A stretch of 13,588 bases of DNA from assembly GCA_051439425.1 (NCBI GenBank), contig JBFRWD010000114.1, positions 1 to 13,588 on the forward strand, written 5' to 3'. Position 1 is the stretch's first letter. Each line of letters opens with the position of its first letter. Shown here in pieces: positions 7,894 through 13,588 of the stretch. Made by a program: the position numbers and the translations under genes. The DNA is from Synechococcus sp. Lineage in GTDB: Bacteria > Cyanobacteriota > Cyanobacteriia > Thermostichales > PCC-7336. The notes beneath the pieces are model-generated. The model saw only the letters and a list, made by a program, of their open reading frames with translations. It had not been told where the DNA came from and did no database searches.

Positions 7894-7966
7894 ACTTAAG
7901 CTGAAAGCAGTCTAGGCTGTACCCGCACTGACTTCACTCGCTTCGGTTCGGGTTAATAACGCCTCT

Positions 7967-8054
7967 GGAGAGGTGGCCGAGTGGTCGAAGGCGCAGCACT
8001 GGAAATGCTGTGTAGCGTAACCCGCTACCGTGGGTTCGAATCCCACCCTCTCCG
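7967..8054 (+). tRNA. tRNA-Ser(GGA)
   Basis: Acceptor stem GGAGAGG/CCTCTCC with G discriminator, anticodon arm CAGCA-CTGGAAA-TGCTG (GGA at 8001-8003), long variable arm GTAGCG..CGCTAC and T-loop TTCGAAT. CCA is not encoded. Confidence 0.97.
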
Positions 8055-8073
8055 TTTTGTCTAATCATTTGCA

Positions 8074-8109
8074 GCCCGAGTCCTTCTCTTTAGGACTCGG
8101 GCCTTTTGT
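8074..8109 (+). terminator. Intrinsic terminator after tRNA-Ser
   Basis: Perfect 11-bp stem GCCCGAGTCCT-TCTCTTT-AGGACTCGGGC followed by CTTTTGT. Confidence 0.8.
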
Positions 8110-8363
8110 ATGGATGCGATCGACATCCCCTCATCATCGCCATCGGCGGATCTTTCTGTCCAGGTAGGACGCCGATAGTGTTCACCTCGCGTGGTTCCTG
8201 TAAAGAGTCAGGGGGTATTTCTAGATATTCAATACCTTTCAACTACATAAAATGACTTGGATATCAAAAAGTATATCTCTATAAGCATATTCTAGTTTCC
8301 CATATCTGTTCATTTATGAATGACATACTATATGTTTTCCGTAAAGCATGCACCATATACACT

Positions 8364-9098
8364 TCAGAAATTTTTTATGTCTTGTAATCGTAAATTGGCT
8401 AGTTCAATATTGGATGAGATCGTAGAAATCCATATTTGATGCACCCTTCTATAACTTAATCGTGTAACTTTATTTGTTACAGGGTGTTGAGCTGTGAACA
8501 GAGCTTCGGCATGGTCGTGTCTGTAAAAGCGTAGATATTTTTTAAGGCAAAGAGTGACATCATCCGAAAAGTGATGGAGACTGATTTCCCCATCTTTTGT
8601 AGAGGCCGTAAATTGGCATGTCTCTAGGTCAATATCTGTGAGATTTAATGCTAGTAGTTGACGGATACTGGCCTTGGTGTTGTTGGATAACCTAACGAGC
8701 AATTGAAGGCGGCAATCATTGCCAACCGCCTCGTACAGCAGCTCGAATTGACGAGGAGTGATGGTTTGCTGGCGATCGCGGTTTTTGCGGTTATCCGATG
8801 AATAGCTCTTAGGGCGGCGGCTATTTCCAATCGGGTTTGTCTTGGCATATCCTTGCTCGATCGCGTAGTTGAACAACGATTGCAGAATGACCTTGTGTCG
8901 ATTGAGCGTATTGCTGGAAAGATGAGATTGTCTTTTTAGATAGCTGTAGACTAACTTAGAATCGAGCAAATTAATATGTATGCGGCCATACTTCTCCAAA
9001 AATGGAAGTAGAGCTATTTCATATGATATTGCTGTAGCTTTCGCTAAGTTCGGTCGATCTAAAAACTGCGTAGCTACTGTGGCAAGAGGGAGAGTCAC
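8364..9098 (-). CDS. Tyrosine recombinase/integrase homologue, C-terminally truncated and lacking catalytic motifs (possible pseudogene)
   Basis: SAM-like N-domain (TLNRHKVILQSLFNYAIEQGYAKTNP) and box I-like TKASIRQLLALNLTDIDL with the Arg absent. It ends at LRLQDIKNF where HxLRH is expected, and there is no LGH...Y box II. The likely start is GTG 9098; the open frame extends to 9167. Confidence 0.8.
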   Translation of the reverse strand: MTLPLATVATQFLDRPNLAKATAISYEIALLPFLEKYGRIHINLLDSKLVYSYLKRQSHLSSNTLNRHKVILQSLFNYAIEQGYAKTNPIGNSRRPKSYSSDNRKNRDRQQTITPRQFELLYEAVGNDCRLQLLVRLSNNTKASIRQLLALNLTDIDLETCQFTASTKDGEISLHHFSDDVTLCLKKYLRFYRHDHAEALFTAQHPVTNKVTRLSYRRVHQIWISTISSNIELANLRLQDIKNF

Positions 9099-9112
9099 AA
9101 TGTATAATGAAA

Positions 9113-9152
9113 ATCGGAAAGTATATTTTCTAGTTAAACTATACTTTCTGAT
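9113..9152. promoter_or_regulatory. 17-6-17 inverted repeat, putative operator between divergent genes
   Basis: ATCGGAAAGTATATTTT-CTAGTT-AAACTATACTTTCTGAT, with arms 15/17 complementary. A TATAAT lies immediately left at 9103-9108. Confidence 0.65.
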
Positions 9153-9175
9153 GACACGTCTGGACACAGCCTTTC

Positions 9176-9634
9176 ATGCAGTCTATAGATTCTGATAAAC
9201 TTCCTCAGTCAGGAGAATCTCTAGCAGAGTATTTGCGACGCTTGCGAATGGAGCTAGGACTAACGCAAAAAGAAGTGGCGACGAAGGCCGGAATCCATCT
9301 GCAAAGCCTAGGAAAGCTAGAGCGCGGAATATCCGCCAGGTTGAATAGCAAGTCCAAGAATGGTCTGGCAGTGGCGCTGCAAGTGCCTAGCGAGTATTTC
9401 GATGCATTGGTGAAAGGTAAGGATATTGTCGATATTGCCGCTGGTTTGAAGTTTTGCCCCGTATGTTGGCAACCCGGTACCTTACCGGATTCATTGTGGA
9501 TGCACGAGAGGGCGAAATTCTGCTTTGCTTGCGGTACTCAGCTACGAAATCGGTGTGCAAACTGTAACGAACCGATTTCATCACTCAAGCATCGATTCTG
9601 CCCCTACTGCGGTACGTCTTATAAGAAAGGGTAG
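9176..9634 (+). CDS. Xre-family HTH protein with C-terminal double zinc ribbon
   Basis: LRRLRMELGLTQKEVATKAGIHLQSLGKLERG HTH and four CxxC pairs (CPVC, CFAC, CANC, CPYC). Confidence 0.9.
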   Translation: MQSIDSDKLPQSGESLAEYLRRLRMELGLTQKEVATKAGIHLQSLGKLERGISARLNSKSKNGLAVALQVPSEYFDALVKGKDIVDIAAGLKFCPVCWQPGTLPDSLWMHERAKFCFACGTQLRNRCANCNEPISSLKHRFCPYCGTSYKKG

Positions 9635-9922: not shown

Positions 9923-10975
9923 TCAGTATGTGGAATGTACAAAATGATTGAATGCATACTGTTGTTGTAGAGAGCTAGCAAAACTCACCGCAGCAGTTCG
10001 TCGATCGCCAGTTGGTTCGCGATAGCTAAAGCGGAGGGCAGGACGTCGTTCCCCCCCAAGATGCAGGTAACCTGCTTCTAAACTGTGAATACTCTTGGAG
10101 GCGATCGCGGATGTCCACCATCCGGCTCTGCGATTAGCAACTGCTAATCCTCCTCGACTAGACGCGTCTACATTTGCCATTAGCACCAATTCACCATTCT
10201 CGGAACTGCCAATTGTCCCTGGCATATCAACAAACATCTGTCGAACGATGGGCTTGGGAGAGCGATTTCCATCTTGAGCTGCAGTGGAAGATAAAGCTAA
10301 GCAAGCACTGACGTGTAAATCAACTTGCTTCCCTTCAGTAAGCGATACTCCTTTGCTGCGCATTACTTGGTGCGAAGGTTCAAAAATAATGCCCTGCTTG
10401 GCTAGGGCAACTGCAAAGATACCTAGTAAGCCTCCAATTCCTCCCATAGCAACCCCGTGTCTCCAGGCTGGGTTGAAGCGGCTTCCTTCAACCAAACTCC
10501 ACGCCGTTTCGAGATACACGTTTTGGCCTAAATCAGCGCGACTGGCGTCAACCTGTCGTTCTGGCTTGAGGGGTTGCAGCCTTCCAGTAACTGCAGATGG
10601 AGATGGGCCAAGCGGATCGCTGGTTGCACGACCTGCGCGAACTAGGATTGCTCGCCGAGTGTCTTCTTCTATCAAAGGAATGTATGCTGCACCTCCTAGT
10701 CTTAGCTCCGATTCGGGAAACAAATGCCCTTGAACGGTAACGTAATCTAATGCCTCAGCTCCTAAGGTGGACCCTTTGATATCTTGAATAGAAATCTGCC
10801 TGGGTTGAGAGTGCGCGATTGCACTGGCGATAAACTCAGCACCCTGCCAAACAACACAAAGCCCCATTCCTGCCATAACGAGCCAGCTCAGAGGAACTCC
10901 CTTTAAGTGAATGTGACTGGTGGTTAGATTGATGCGGGCAGCAATGCCCAACGGTCGGTACACCCAAGAAGACAT
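9923..10975 (-). CDS. Hypothetical membrane protein
   Basis: 350-aa ORF with two hydrophobic segments (about aa 28-54 and 174-192). No family is recognised. Confidence 0.7.
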   Translation of the reverse strand: MSSWVYRPLGIAARINLTTSHIHLKGVPLSWLVMAGMGLCVVWQGAEFIASAIAHSQPRQISIQDIKGSTLGAEALDYVTVQGHLFPESELRLGGAAYIPLIEEDTRRAILVRAGRATSDPLGPSPSAVTGRLQPLKPERQVDASRADLGQNVYLETAWSLVEGSRFNPAWRHGVAMGGIGGLLGIFAVALAKQGIIFEPSHQVMRSKGVSLTEGKQVDLHVSACLALSSTAAQDGNRSPKPIVRQMFVDMPGTIGSSENGELVLMANVDASSRGGLAVANRRAGWWTSAIASKSIHSLEAGYLHLGGERRPALRFSYREPTGDRRTAAVSFASSLQQQYAFNHFVHSTY

Positions 10976-11123: not shown

Positions 11124-11149
11124 ATTATCAAGAGAATACTCCAGATAAT
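11124..11149. repeat. Degenerate copy of the 13-bp arm within an imperfect palindrome
   Basis: ATACTCCAGATAA at 11136-11148 (12/13 match) inside ATTATCAAGAGAATACTCCAGATAAT. Confidence 0.55.
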
Positions 11150-11230
11150 GATTAAGAGATAGTGACTAATTCATTTAGTGATTCAACCCATGATTCGAGC
11201 ATCGATTTGATGTCTGGGCAATGTTCAAGT

Positions 11231-11950
11231 ATGGGATTTGTAGCGGGAATTGATGGATGTCGAGCAGGATGGATTGCGATCGCTTACAGCAATGCTGGCT
11301 TCTCTCACAAACTTCTGGAAACAAAGCAGGAACTACTCGAATTCTTGCAAGCAGCCAAGTTAGCCTTGATCGATATTCCGATTGGTCTTTCTGATTGCGA
11401 GGCCAGCCGCCATTGCGATCGTTTACTCAGAGATGCCCTCCGTCCTCACTTCAGCTCAAGTGTATTCAATCCGCCAGTAAGACAAGCCATTTATGCCAGA
11501 AGCTATGAGGAGGCCTGCCTGAAGAATGCTGCTGCAACCGGGAAGAAACTATCAAAGCAATCGTGGAATATTTCGGAAAAAATCCGAATCATTGATGAGC
11601 TACTGCTTGCTCATCCTGCCTTGAGAGGTACCGTTCATGAAAGCCATCCGGAATATCTCTTCTTCAATTTAAATCGCCATCACTTAGTGCATAAGAAGAA
11701 AACTGTTGCTGGGAGGGTTGAGCGACTCACAATATTGGCTAATTTTTTTCCGGCGATTGAGGATATGTTCGGCGAGGTGCGCTCGCACTACCTGAAAAAA
11801 CAAATGGCAGATGACGACATCGTTGATGCTCTTGGCTTGGCGATTGGAGCACAGATGGTTGGCGATCGCGAGCTTTGTAGCCTGCCTCAACCAATCGAGC
11901 GAGATAAACAAGGTATCCCGATGGCCATCCACTATGTGGCTATGCCTTAG
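11231..11950 (+). CDS. DUF429 family predicted RNase H-like nuclease
   Basis: VAGIDGCRAGW, IDIPIGL, RHCDR..R, SSVFNPP, LSKQSWNI..KI, ESHPE and DDIVDA motifs. The ATG at 11231 is preferred because the family begins at the GID strand; the open frame starts at GTG 11162. Confidence 0.85.
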   Translation: MGFVAGIDGCRAGWIAIAYSNAGFSHKLLETKQELLEFLQAAKLALIDIPIGLSDCEASRHCDRLLRDALRPHFSSSVFNPPVRQAIYARSYEEACLKNAAATGKKLSKQSWNISEKIRIIDELLLAHPALRGTVHESHPEYLFFNLNRHHLVHKKKTVAGRVERLTILANFFPAIEDMFGEVRSHYLKKQMADDDIVDALGLAIGAQMVGDRELCSLPQPIERDKQGIPMAIHYVAMP

Positions 11951-11962
11951 TTCGAGCAGCAG

Positions 11963-11983
11963 ATAGTCCAGATAATTATTCAA
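11963..11983 (+). repeat. 13-bp arm half-site (ATAGTCCAGATAA + TTATTCAA)
   Basis: Exact arm, 12 bp after the DUF429 stop. The 21 bp are identical to the reverse complement of 13445-13465. Confidence 0.9.
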
Positions 11984-12093
11984 GGCATCTCATTCTTTCT
12001 GAAGTCATATATGAGTATTCCCGGCAGAATATTTGAGGTTCCCGCGATTCGACAACGTTGTGCAAGTGGACGGTTTCCTGATTCGAGTGACGG

Positions 12094-12113
12094 ATAGTCC
12101 AGATAATTGCTAT
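12094..12113 (+). repeat. 13-bp arm half-site (ATAGTCCAGATAA + TTGCTAT)
   Basis: Exact arm at 12094-12106, preceded by TTCGAG-N6 as in the 11963 copy. Confidence 0.9.
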
Positions 12114-12266
12114 TGTCCTTGGGAGCAGGAAGGAAACGCCGACCGGAACAAGCCACCTACTACCAAGATTAAACACTGCCAATGAACTATCCCATATAAA
12201 GCGGCTTTCCCTCCACCACATCTACTGCCATCCAAATGCATTTCCCTGACCTCCACCACCACTCAA

Positions 12267-12299
12267 ATAGTCCAGATAAGTAATAGTTATCTGGACTAT
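12267..12299. repeat. Perfect 13-7-13 inverted repeat (loxP-like putative recombination site)
   Basis: ATAGTCCAGATAA-GTAATAG-TTATCTGGACTAT, with an asymmetric 7-bp spacer. Confidence 0.9.
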
Positions 12300-12560
12300 A
12301 GATATACTCGCGGGCTGTATCCCATGCCTGGCAATGATTCTGAGGAATGGCATATTAGAGCCATAATTCCGCTAAAGCCAATTTCTGGCCTTGTTGGTCA
12401 TCAATCGGAGAAGCAAATGGCTTTTCTGCCGCTCATCAATGAAGGAGCGGGGGAGGGCAGCTCCGTTCGTCTCGTATCAAGTAGCCTGGGAGGAGAATCT
12501 ACAATAGCCAGACATCGGGACACTAGACTAGTCCTCAATATTCCTCACTCAAGTAGCCTA

Positions 12561-12580
12561 ATAGTCCAGATAATTATTCT
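12561..12580 (+). repeat. 13-bp arm half-site (ATAGTCCAGATAA + TTATTCT)
   Basis: Exact arm at 12561-12573. The first 19 bp are identical to the 11963 copy. Confidence 0.9.
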
Positions 12581-12718
12581 TCCGATTACTCTCCAGCAAG
12601 GACAAGAAGACAAGACTGCTAAAAAATTAATGCCATTCGGATAAATTGCTGTGTATTATTAAACTTCAGCCTCACTTAGGTATATAGATACTCTTTAAGC
12701 TTAGCGGGAGTCCTCACC

Positions 12719-13441
12719 ATGTTTTCTTTGCTCTCAGTCTTGATTTCGCGCGATCGAAACGACTGGTGTAAGAGGGTTAGCGACCCCATGAGAGAAATTG
12801 AAGACTTTTATAAATCACGAGCCGAGATTTCCCTCAAGCAGCGCCGAAAGACAGCATACGAGCGCTTGCGGAGATTAGAAGATATTAGTCCTTACGCCGC
12901 AAAGACGATTCTAATGCAATGGGATGCAGCGATGGCGGCGTCCGTAAAGTCTGCTTCCGCGAGGAGGAGTAGAAGCTCTAATGTCCGTACAAGCAAAGAG
13001 GTAGTTTTAACCGGCTCCCGGTCACAAGTGTCCAAAGAGTTAGCTCAGAAACACGCTGCCACTCGCGACCTACGTATTGGAGAATTACTGCAGAAAGCTG
13101 GACTTGTAACCCCTACTCAGATTGAAATTGCGTTGATGGAGCAGGAAACCTGCACGCAACAACTTTTGGGAGACATCATCGCAGAACGTGGTTGGATAAA
13201 ATCTGAAACCGTTGACTTCTTTATTCGTCGATTCCCCAATATCCACCGCGAGTCCTTTCGGTTTCCGCTGGGACGCTACCTTAAGGATGCTTCTCTCCTC
13301 GATACCGCCCAGATTGGTTGCATCCTGCAGGCTCAAAGTCGATCACTCAGGCCAGTCATGTTCGGGACGCTGGCAGTCTCTCAAGGCTATGTAAAACAGG
13401 AGACCATCGATATCCTGCTTCAGCAACTGACAACTCGGTAA
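12719..13441 (+). CDS. Hypothetical protein with two tandem MshEN-like (putative c-di-GMP-binding) domains
   Basis: RIGELLQKAGLVTPTQIEIALMEQ...LLGDIIAERGWI and PLGRYLKDASLLDTAQIGCILQAQ...MFGTLAVSQGYV resemble the RLGxxLxxxGLI...LxxQ motif. An alternative start is ATG 12788. Confidence 0.7.
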   Translation: MFSLLSVLISRDRNDWCKRVSDPMREIEDFYKSRAEISLKQRRKTAYERLRRLEDISPYAAKTILMQWDAAMAASVKSASARRSRSSNVRTSKEVVLTGSRSQVSKELAQKHAATRDLRIGELLQKAGLVTPTQIEIALMEQETCTQQLLGDIIAERGWIKSETVDFFIRRFPNIHRESFRFPLGRYLKDASLLDTAQIGCILQAQSRSLRPVMFGTLAVSQGYVKQETIDILLQQLTTR

Positions 13442-13444
13442 TTT

Positions 13445-13465
13445 TTGAATAATTATCTGGACTAT
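13445..13465 (-). repeat. 13-bp arm half-site, inverted orientation
   Basis: TTGAATAA-TTATCTGGACTAT, with the arm at 13453-13465, 11 bp after the upstream stop codon. Confidence 0.9.
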
Positions 13466-13588
13466 GTGCGATGCGAAGAACCGAAACCATCAGTTTGATG
13501 GGGGATGGTTCACCTCTCCGAGCTAACTGCTGATCCAGTGTTAGCACTAACGCTCGGGAGGTAACTGAATCAGCTTGTTGGTGCGACT

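Follow-up and report, generated by a model that had tools for sequence, protein, structure and literature searches.

The window analysed here is a stretch of 13,588 nucleotides (nt) that represents the entire contig JBFRWD010000114.1 (C114) of the cyanobacterium Synechococcus sp. (GCA_051439425.1, referred to as G000), whose assembly comprises 4.8 Mb in 182 contigs and is 96% complete. The distal part of this window contains a perfect 13-7-13 palindrome at positions 12267..12299, an unstranded element in which two 13-bp arms, identical and inverted, enclose an asymmetric 7-bp spacer (ATAGTCCAGATAA - GTAATAG - TTATCTGGACTAT) and that is designated the full site below. Single copies of the same arm are distributed on both sides of it. 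A motif search of the window located ATAGTCCAGATAA exactly at positions 11963, 12094, 12267 and 12561 on the plus strand and at 12287 and 13453 on the minus strand, along with the 12-of-13 match ATACTCCAGATAA at 11136, and detected no copy with up to two mismatches upstream of position 11136. These seven matches compare with 0.30 expected, and none of 200 shuffled sequences reached this number. In the whole 4.8-Mb assembly the exact 13-mer is restricted to the six places in the window, and allowing one mismatch added three further matches genome-wide versus six for the backwards control. No longer repeat was found around the arms when the window was compared with G000, and the first and last 15 to 55 bases of the contig are absent from every other contig of this genome. 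Four of the single arms are followed by the 7-mers TTATTCA, TTGCTAT, TTATTCT and TTATTCA. The seven copy positions, the absence of the arm from the first 11 kb, the palindrome and the four 7-mers had all been described in a sequence-only reading of the window, which interpreted the array as a tyrosine recombinase system for the capture of cassettes, and all of them were recovered here.

Upstream of the full site, the arm variant ATACTCCAGATAA (11136..11148, plus strand) is directed toward the full site and precedes a DUF429 gene (11162..11950, plus strand; PF04250, E-value 1.3e-48) that is bracketed in a cassette-like manner by two inward-pointing arms, the second of which is combined with the pentamer TTATT (11963..11980, plus strand). 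Another inward-pointing arm, followed by TTGCT, is located at 12094..12106 on the plus strand. The right flank includes an arm with TTATT at 12561..12578 (plus strand) that breaks the inward rule, and an inward-pointing arm at 13453..13465 (minus strand) that carries TTATT on its own strand; an open reading frame (ORF) of 240 codons between these two arms (12719..13441, plus strand) specifies a protein without a Pfam family. The window terminates 123 nt into a multicopy group II intron that starts with GTGCG (13466..13588, plus strand), and the plus strand of the arm at 13453 represents the 5' exon of this intron, TTATCT-G-GACTAT. The arm at 12561 is likewise an intron homing site, which is empty in G000 and filled, on the minus strand, in a related strain termed X3. 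The G-to-C variant at 11136 was also identified as the regular arm form of the full site in a sister genus. Judged by its sequence, this copy is a sister-genus variant and not a degenerate or decayed arm.

The distribution of the full site was determined in 30 genomes of the same cyanobacterial order by means of a pattern that allows up to three mismatches. The version with a 7-nt spacer was detected in 21 of the 30 genomes and is present in exactly one copy in 19 of these 21, with a second hit at three mismatches in two genomes (G006 and G028), whereas a 13-8-13 version occurs once each in the complete genomes G007 and G016. A full site of either spacer length was accordingly found in 23 of the 30 genomes. 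The pattern had no match in 400 other genomes sampled phylum-wide, only one of which belongs to this order. The seven genomes without a full site are four draft assemblies (85-94% complete), one genome with a stop in the recombinase frame and two reduced genomes (G010 and G022, 99% complete) that lack the recombinase described below. The consensus sequence of the full site reads ATA[G/C]TCCAGATAA - TTRAYAC - TTATCTGGA[C/G]TAT and includes an asymmetric spacer, the T-side of which points to the left or to the right depending on the genome. In one sister genus, the full site has the same G-to-C change in both of its arms. With respect to individual genomes, G013 contains one lone arm and no full site, together with a Xer-like gene interrupted by an in-frame TAG, and the two smallest genomes of the genus (G010 and G022) contain neither a Xer-like gene nor arms. 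The system may be lost in reduced genomes.

The genes adjoining the full site differ by genome and include obg/moeA, the genes for RuBisCO activase and an ABC transporter, histidine kinases, PFK and TauE. No neighbouring gene is common to all arrays, and the only clusters recurring across loci were ORFs of the PAS/GAF/CBS sensor and histidine kinase type (four genomes) and DUF429 (three genomes). A BLAST comparison of the region with relatives gave few matches beyond the DUF429 gene and the palindrome. Eleven genomes, ten of which belong to one genus, contain a bare full site with no flanking arms within approximately 6 kb. Other strains were compared by mapping the assembled contigs of four public runs on the window, a type of data that cannot reveal rare forms. 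The strains X1 and X4 contain the same palindrome as the window, including the spacer, and both flanks differ, the left one from position 12267 and the right one from position 12299 or 12307. The flanks of the strains diverge at or no more than 8 bp from the arm edges, a point in support of the sequence-only reading.

The position of the full site within the chromosome was examined by GC skew analysis. The strongest plus-to-minus switch within 400 kb is located 440 bp from the site in G007 and 738 bp from it in G016, both of them complete genomes, and the same result was obtained at the 20-, 50- and 100-kb scales. Within 6 kb on either side of the site, 14 of the 19 loci with at least 2 kb of sequence on both sides had positive skew to the left of the site and negative skew to the right of it, one locus showed the reverse pattern and four had the same sign on both sides, with values of up to 0.2; this left/right pattern is independent of contig orientation. 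Since all annotated ORFs within about 3.3 kb on both sides of the site in G015 are located on the minus strand and the skew nevertheless flips, gene direction does not explain the switch. In G000 the skew is +0.025 left of the site and -0.042 across the 50 kb of contig C115 that follow the intron, the link between C114 and C115 being provided by strain X3. Near the site the local GC skew reaches 0.15 to 0.2, well above the 0.01 to 0.02 at the 200- to 400-kb scale. Moreover, G/T-rich oligomers are polar toward the site within 6 kb on either side in 23 loci, with 38 forward versus 5 reverse copies of GGGTTTGG and 34 versus 4 of GGTTTGGG; these may represent either a chromosome-orienting motif or only local strand bias, and no specific orienting motif is claimed.

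The genome of G000 contains four Phage_integrase matches, the best of which is an ORF on contig C64 that encodes a protein of 312 amino acids. The best NCBIfam models for this protein are XerA, XerC and XerD, and its closest solved chains are 4a8e (XerC-like/XerA), 1a0p (XerD), 5hxy (XerA) and 5jjv (XerH). The H-x-x-R, GH and Y segments are conserved in tyrosine recombinases, and the corresponding stretches align between the 312-amino-acid protein and 4a8e. Orthologs with 71-96% identity were identified in 28 of the 30 genomes, and in both genomes without an ortholog (99% complete) the arms do not exceed background. The Xer-like gene is located on another contig in G000 and 0.4 to 1.3 Mb away from the site in complete or near-complete genomes. 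No intact recombinase gene was detected beside the full site in the window or in nine related annotated loci; the sequence-only reading had suggested a search for such an enzyme next to full sites, and the likely enzyme is encoded on the other contig. Additionally, the FtsK gamma domain PF09397 was not found in the 96% complete assembly of G000, and only one of the four Phage_integrase matches is a high-scoring Xer-like gene, so that the two paralogues of a XerCD/FtsK system were not recovered from this genome. Two identical arms fit the action of a single recombinase. According to the co-occurrence of gene and site and to the geometry of the latter, the 312-amino-acid protein would be the enzyme that acts on the full site. 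A half-site was also sought in front of the Xer-like gene as a sign of autoregulation, and the search yielded only a match with two mismatches inside the upstream ORF that looks like chance.

The single arms were analyzed in 23 loci, which yielded 42 flank arms with no more than one mismatch. On the left of the full site 25 of 26 arms are oriented in plus direction and on the right 14 of 16 in minus direction, so that 39 of the 42 arms point inward (P of about 3e-9 if the arms are treated as independent); the copy at position 12561 is one of the three exceptions. When sorted by zero, one, two and three mismatches, the arms numbered 37, 5, 10 and 74, compared with 0, 0, 12 and 82 for the backwards control. 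The counts thus lack a tail of degenerate copies, which speaks against decay; the sequence-only reading had proposed scars or substrates, and scars in the course of decay were given up. The arm is followed by T (39 of 42), T (34 of 42) and mostly by A, T and T, with random nucleotides from the sixth position onward, and none of these extensions reads GT as the spacer side of the full site does. The consensus of the single arms is therefore the arm plus TTATT, an 18-nt sequence from which the second arm is absent.

The segments between the arms range in length from 1 nt to 4.5 kb and often contain one gene. Their genes encode DUF429, Usp, pentapeptide, esterase, methyltransferase, GNAT and toxin-antitoxin proteins, and no integrase was present in the arrays of the nine related annotated loci. 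Arms bracket a DUF429 gene in G000 as well as in G001, with a nucleotide identity of only about 66% while the arms are exact. A Usp segment lies left of the centre in G002 and right of it in G001, its orientation relative to the arms being unchanged. That single arms bound unrelated segments, the contents of which differ between genomes, is in accordance with the sequence-only reading. The contigs of the four runs contained no excised circle and no pair of empty and filled sites for any gene segment. The spacing of tandem arms and the perfect conservation of the arm sequence suggest that the arms have a function of their own. Among these tandem arms, a doublet composed of an arm, one base and a second arm starting with TTAGTCC was observed at L021:5667-5693 (G009), L121:5621-5647 (G029) and L112:7306-7332 (G024), in the left flank of two genomes and, inverted, in the right flank of the third, an arrangement that integration scars do not explain. 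Other tandem arms are 17 to 27 bp apart in G006 and G024. Genes of the toxin-antitoxin type were noted within two arrays: in G027 the full site and the arm nearest to it have a RES/Xre-like gene pair directly between them (L019:6000-6955), and a PIN-domain gene lies inside a 4-kb segment of G002 (L018:9757-10248).

A mobile component of the locus was recognized at its right end. Positions 13451 to 13578 of the window match the end of contig C68 with 99% identity, and either contig breaks off within this common sequence. The latter reads TTATCTG[G/T]ACTAT followed by GTGCGATGCG; the window contains TTATCTGGACTAT|GTGCG and C68 contains TTATCTGTACTAT|GTGCG, their sole difference being located at the base that is proposed as the linker. 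Group II introns canonically start with GTGCG. The Rfam model RF00029 for intron domains V-VI matched three further contig ends (C44, C115 and C167) with 50.6 bits at a cut-off of 40, and these contigs share the 3' terminus ...GACCCCTAAT, after which they continue into unrelated DNA. Five contigs (C114, C68, C44, C115 and C167) thus end within one multicopy intron, which therefore breaks the assembly. Rfam gave no match to the first 123 nt of the intron, and a GIIM domain was not found in the G000 assembly, in which the intron interior is unassembled. The 5' end of the intron was not found in 40 relatives, and an exact 23-nt pattern of it had no match in public genome contigs and none in metagenome contigs.

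Strain X3, which was sequenced in another study, is the opposite of G000 with respect to both intron positions. After position 13465 its sequence continues directly into the DNA that follows the intron on C115, which reveals an empty site, and next to its arm at 12561 the loose ends at 12541 and 12561 read as reverse complements of the 3' and 5' ends of the intron, respectively, which reveals a site filled on the minus strand. In G000, the junction 13465|13466 is filled and the arm at 12561 is empty. Furthermore, C114 continues in X3 through the intron into the reverse complement of C115, and a third 5' context sharing GAATAATTATCTGGACTAT is present. The depth of the intron contigs was 60.8 versus 10-13 in X1 and 38 versus 6 in X3, one intron contig measuring 2187 nt, which suggests roughly five to six copies. 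The intron thus combines a start of the GUGYG type with domains V-VI, and it is polymorphic for filled and empty sites. Very probably, this mobile group II intron uses the outer arm edge as its homing site. Upstream of the insertion, the 13 nt would consist of a 6-nt intron-binding site 2 (IBS2, TTATCT), one linker base and a 6-nt intron-binding site 1 (IBS1, GACTAT) that pair with the intron. The arm copy at 13453 that the sequence-only reading counted among the recombination sites is explained by the 5' junction of an intron that this reading had missed. A loose end of X3 at 13464, at which the intron 3' terminus directly precedes the intron 5' start, may reflect tandem copies, a circle junction or an artefact of the assembly graph.

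The remaining features of the window lie upstream of the arms. A tRNA-Ser gene is located at 7966-8055, 3 kb upstream of the first arm, and other populations diverge directly past its 3' end (loose ends 8057-8059). It is followed by an integrase-like ORF of 267 codons on the minus strand (8364-9167), which has only SAM-like and N-terminal matches and no recognisable catalytic domain, and next by a gene for a protein with HTH_3 and double-zinc-ribbon domains (9176-9634). The region 7966-9634 looks like a decayed tRNA-integrated island beside the dif-like region. The tRNA link invoked by the sequence-only reading exists as a loose one, and the full site is not private to a tRNA-linked island, as it is near single-copy across the order and located at the skew switch. 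A search of the window with Rfam at gathering and permissive thresholds returned only the tRNA-Ser and one chance match of miRNA type. The 350-codon ORF on the minus strand at 9923-10975 has no Pfam family.

Taken together, the palindrome at 12267-12299 is probably the dif-type site of this cyanobacterial order. Judged by the sequence data, it combines the attributes expected of a dif site, namely one site per chromosome, two inverted arms separated by 7 to 8 bp and a Xer-family recombinase encoded in the genome, and its 13-7-13 architecture with an asymmetric spacer agrees with the core-site geometry of tyrosine recombinases that the sequence-only reading had pointed out. The conserved XerA/XerD-like recombinase would bind the two identical arms as a homodimer type, and strand exchange across the asymmetric spacer of 7 to 8 bp would resolve chromosome dimers near the terminus; by analogy with archaeal XerA, this probably works without the FtsK gamma domain. 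For the single arms, the chances appear about even that they are one-armed sites for the same enzyme that bound small segments devoid of integrase genes. Such segments would have entered at or beside the full site, the identity of the arms permitting placement on either side with the arms still pointing inward. One strand exchange at the border of arm and spacer, on either strand of the palindrome, would leave an arm plus TTATT at the outer end of the segment and regenerate the full site. Entry via either strand would consequently produce the two-sided, inward-pointing pattern. This pattern would be preserved by inversions that involve one arm from each flank, and such inversions could explain both the varying direction of the spacer T-side and the change of side of the Usp segment. 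The combined explanation, which joins a dif-like site, arms as cassette boundaries and intron homing, is held with moderate confidence, and the tyrosine recombinase and cassette idea of the sequence-only reading is partly supported.

Several observations weigh against this explanation. Seven of the 30 genomes show no full site, and the presence of 7-nt and 8-nt spacers in one system is unusual for one recombinase. The 312-amino-acid protein scores below every NCBIfam Xer cut-off (XerA, 120.9 versus 220 bits), and the joint absence of gene and site rests on two reduced genomes of a single genus. With respect to the terminus, the best skew switch within 800 kb in G002, the third complete genome and one from the genus of the window, lies 79 kb from the site, the average skew being +0.018 in the left 400 kb and -0.003 in the right 400 kb; the skew in 40 windows of 20 kb sampled across the whole G002 genome was noisy and revealed no clean pattern of two replichores. 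The dnaA and dnaN genes are not opposite the site in G002, G007 or G016. The skew tests are local (400-800 kb), and the genomes are related, so that the counts for skew and orientation overstate independence. As for the arms, 12 short segments between them were scored for ORF direction and 8 had inward ORFs, a proportion without statistical significance, and tandem arms 14 to 27 bp apart as well as the perfect conservation of the arms are not predicted by simple integration scars. Neither joints between arms nor other recombination products were present in the contigs of the four runs, which cannot show rare forms. Regarding the intron, the exon-binding sites EBS1 and EBS2 are unreadable because the intron interior is unassembled.

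Among the competing explanations, a dedicated cassette platform of the integron, shufflon or pdif type, with no role in dimer resolution, would readily accommodate arms that bracket single genes differing between genomes, that are perfectly kept and that have a half-site consensus (arm plus TTATT) distinct from the full-site spacer TTRAYAC, as well as the Usp segment on opposite flanks in two species. It leaves unexplained why eleven genomes, ten of one genus, keep a bare full site, which points to a housekeeping role, and why the site coincides with the skew switch, and no recombinase gene is adjacent; we regard this explanation as unlikely. Its integron variant, which the sequence-only reading had considered, was dismissed as there is neither an intI gene nor an attC site, the sites being 18-nt single arms instead of attC-type imperfect palindromes, and no integrase accompanies the arrays. 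The shufflon was rejected in view of the missing adjacent recombinase and of segments that hold whole genes. Somewhat less probable still is a replication fork trap or terminus-organising site, in which the arms would be polar, Ter-like binding sites of a terminus protein and not recombination sites. Two opposed polar groups around a centre with 39 of 42 arms inward, the sharp skew switch at this centre and the perfect arm conservation expected of protein-binding sites are compatible with such a function, whereas no member of the Tus (PF05472) or RTP (PF02334) family was found in G000, many genomes have the central palindrome only, and the 13-7/8-13 architecture with its asymmetric, AT-rich spacer is typical of tyrosine recombinase core sites. 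Replacement of strain flanks at or no more than 8 bp from the arm edges and the co-occurrence of the site with the Xer-like gene also argue against a fork trap.

The two other explanations are far less probable. The palindrome lies in intergenic DNA and the arms are often found 30 to 300 bp upstream of an ORF, as would be anticipated for the operator of a transcription factor that controls local genes. An operator is nevertheless very improbable, given that there is one full site per genome beside unrelated genes and no conserved adjacent regulator, the HTH gene at 9176-9634 being without a counterpart at other loci; the inward polarity on both flanks and the skew switch would likewise be left unexplained. 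The least credible proposal is that the 13-mer is a by-product of a mobile element, either as the end of an insertion sequence (IS) or miniature inverted-repeat transposable element (MITE) or as a sequence spread by the group II intron. It can invoke the one copy that abuts a multicopy element ending several contigs. The repeat shared by the contigs, though, starts at the arm, and the intron proper begins after the arm with GTGCG; the existence of empty as well as filled sites identifies the arm as the target and not as part of the element. Arrays are moreover present in 11 other genomes while the intron 5' end is absent from 40 relatives, and the arms are not embedded in a longer repeat. This proposal is already largely refuted. 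The sequence-only reading had itself stated that a motif scattered genome-wide or located at an IS or MITE end would speak against a recombination site, and neither was encountered, the exact 13-mer being confined to the window. A CRISPR-like interpretation was rejected as well, alongside the transcription factor operator, the IS/MITE end and the integron.

Compared with known systems, the likeness is greatest to the single-recombinase Xer systems (XerA, XerS and XerH) combined with Xer-exploiting elements or dif modules. The classical dif layout is 11-6-11. The XerA/dif system of archaea shares with the present locus the single Xer-like recombinase (with 4a8e and 5hxy as relatives), the FtsK gamma domain that was not found and a near single-copy site with inverted arms. 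It differs in that the host is here a cyanobacterium, the arms are 13 bp and the spacer 7 to 8 bp long, the XerA score is below the cut-off and single-arm arrays surround the site. XerS/difSL of streptococci and XerH/difH of epsilon-proteobacteria exemplify bacterial dimer resolution by a single recombinase, and XerH (5jjv) is a detectable relative of the candidate enzyme. In both systems the gene adjoins its site and FtsK is involved, whereas the gene is distant from the site here and no FtsK gamma domain was found.

Integrase-less DNA beside or between dif-like sites is also characteristic of integrative mobile elements exploiting Xer (IMEX), such as the CTX and TLC phages and the gonococcal island, and of the pdif sites and dif modules of Acinetobacter. 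Small dif modules with one gene, as seen here too, are described in one report (PMC6449649). In contrast to these elements, the boundaries detected here consist of one arm plus TTATT instead of two arms, occupy both flanks with inward orientation and belong to the probable chromosomal terminus of cyanobacteria, and the mobility of the segments is putative. The sfx sites of the R64 shufflon possess one conserved arm and a 7-bp spacer. The Rci/sfx system thus resembles the present locus in this one-arm plus 7-bp layout and in two inverted groups of sites, between which inversions across the centre are conceivable, and it differs from the locus by the absence here of an adjacent rci-like gene, by segments that are whole genes and not alternative 3' ends and by the central full palindrome. 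Class C group II introns use targets such as attC sites or terminators. The intron of G000 corresponds to group II introns with defined DNA targets in that it homes to a short conserved non-coding site of which several copies are filled, and it deviates from them in that the target is the arm of a dif-like site.

A more far-reaching interpretation, which we put forward only tentatively, regards the single arms as active sites of a platform for gene cassettes on the chromosome, with the cell's own dif at its core and the housekeeping Xer-like recombinase as its enzyme. Cassettes in the form of circles, each with one gene and an arm plus TTATT, would then enter the palindrome in either alignment and could later be excised from it, inversions that involve one arm from each side would shuffle both the cassettes and the spacer orientation across the terminus, and the group II intron would have specialised on the arm as a safe, always-present target. 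If true, this would represent a two-sided cassette system without an integrase of its own along with the first functional dif described for cyanobacteria.

The proposed dif-type site bears on a group of bacteria in which such sites have been missed. The systematic prediction of Kono et al. 2011 (PMC3025954) yielded a dif in none of five cyanobacteria, and according to the 2019 paper on the Halomicronema genome (PMC6416890) cyanobacteria have no predicted dif sites. As a proposal only, Smyshlyaev et al. 2021 (PMC8138268) suggest that a 'Cyan' subgroup of recombinases may replace Xer. The literature searched contained no description of a cyanobacterial dif, and the titles and abstracts searched contained no link of group II introns to dif as a target. 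The candidate site of 33 to 34 bp and the candidate enzyme make dimer resolution, the position of the terminus and segregation testable in culturable and often polyploid cyanobacteria, and the site would provide a marker of the terminus where GC skew is weak. The intron represents a retroelement that exploits the arm of a recombination site as its target. Finally, the inward-pointing, conserved half-sites and the variable genes between them suggest a new way in which integrase-less DNA may collect at the terminus.

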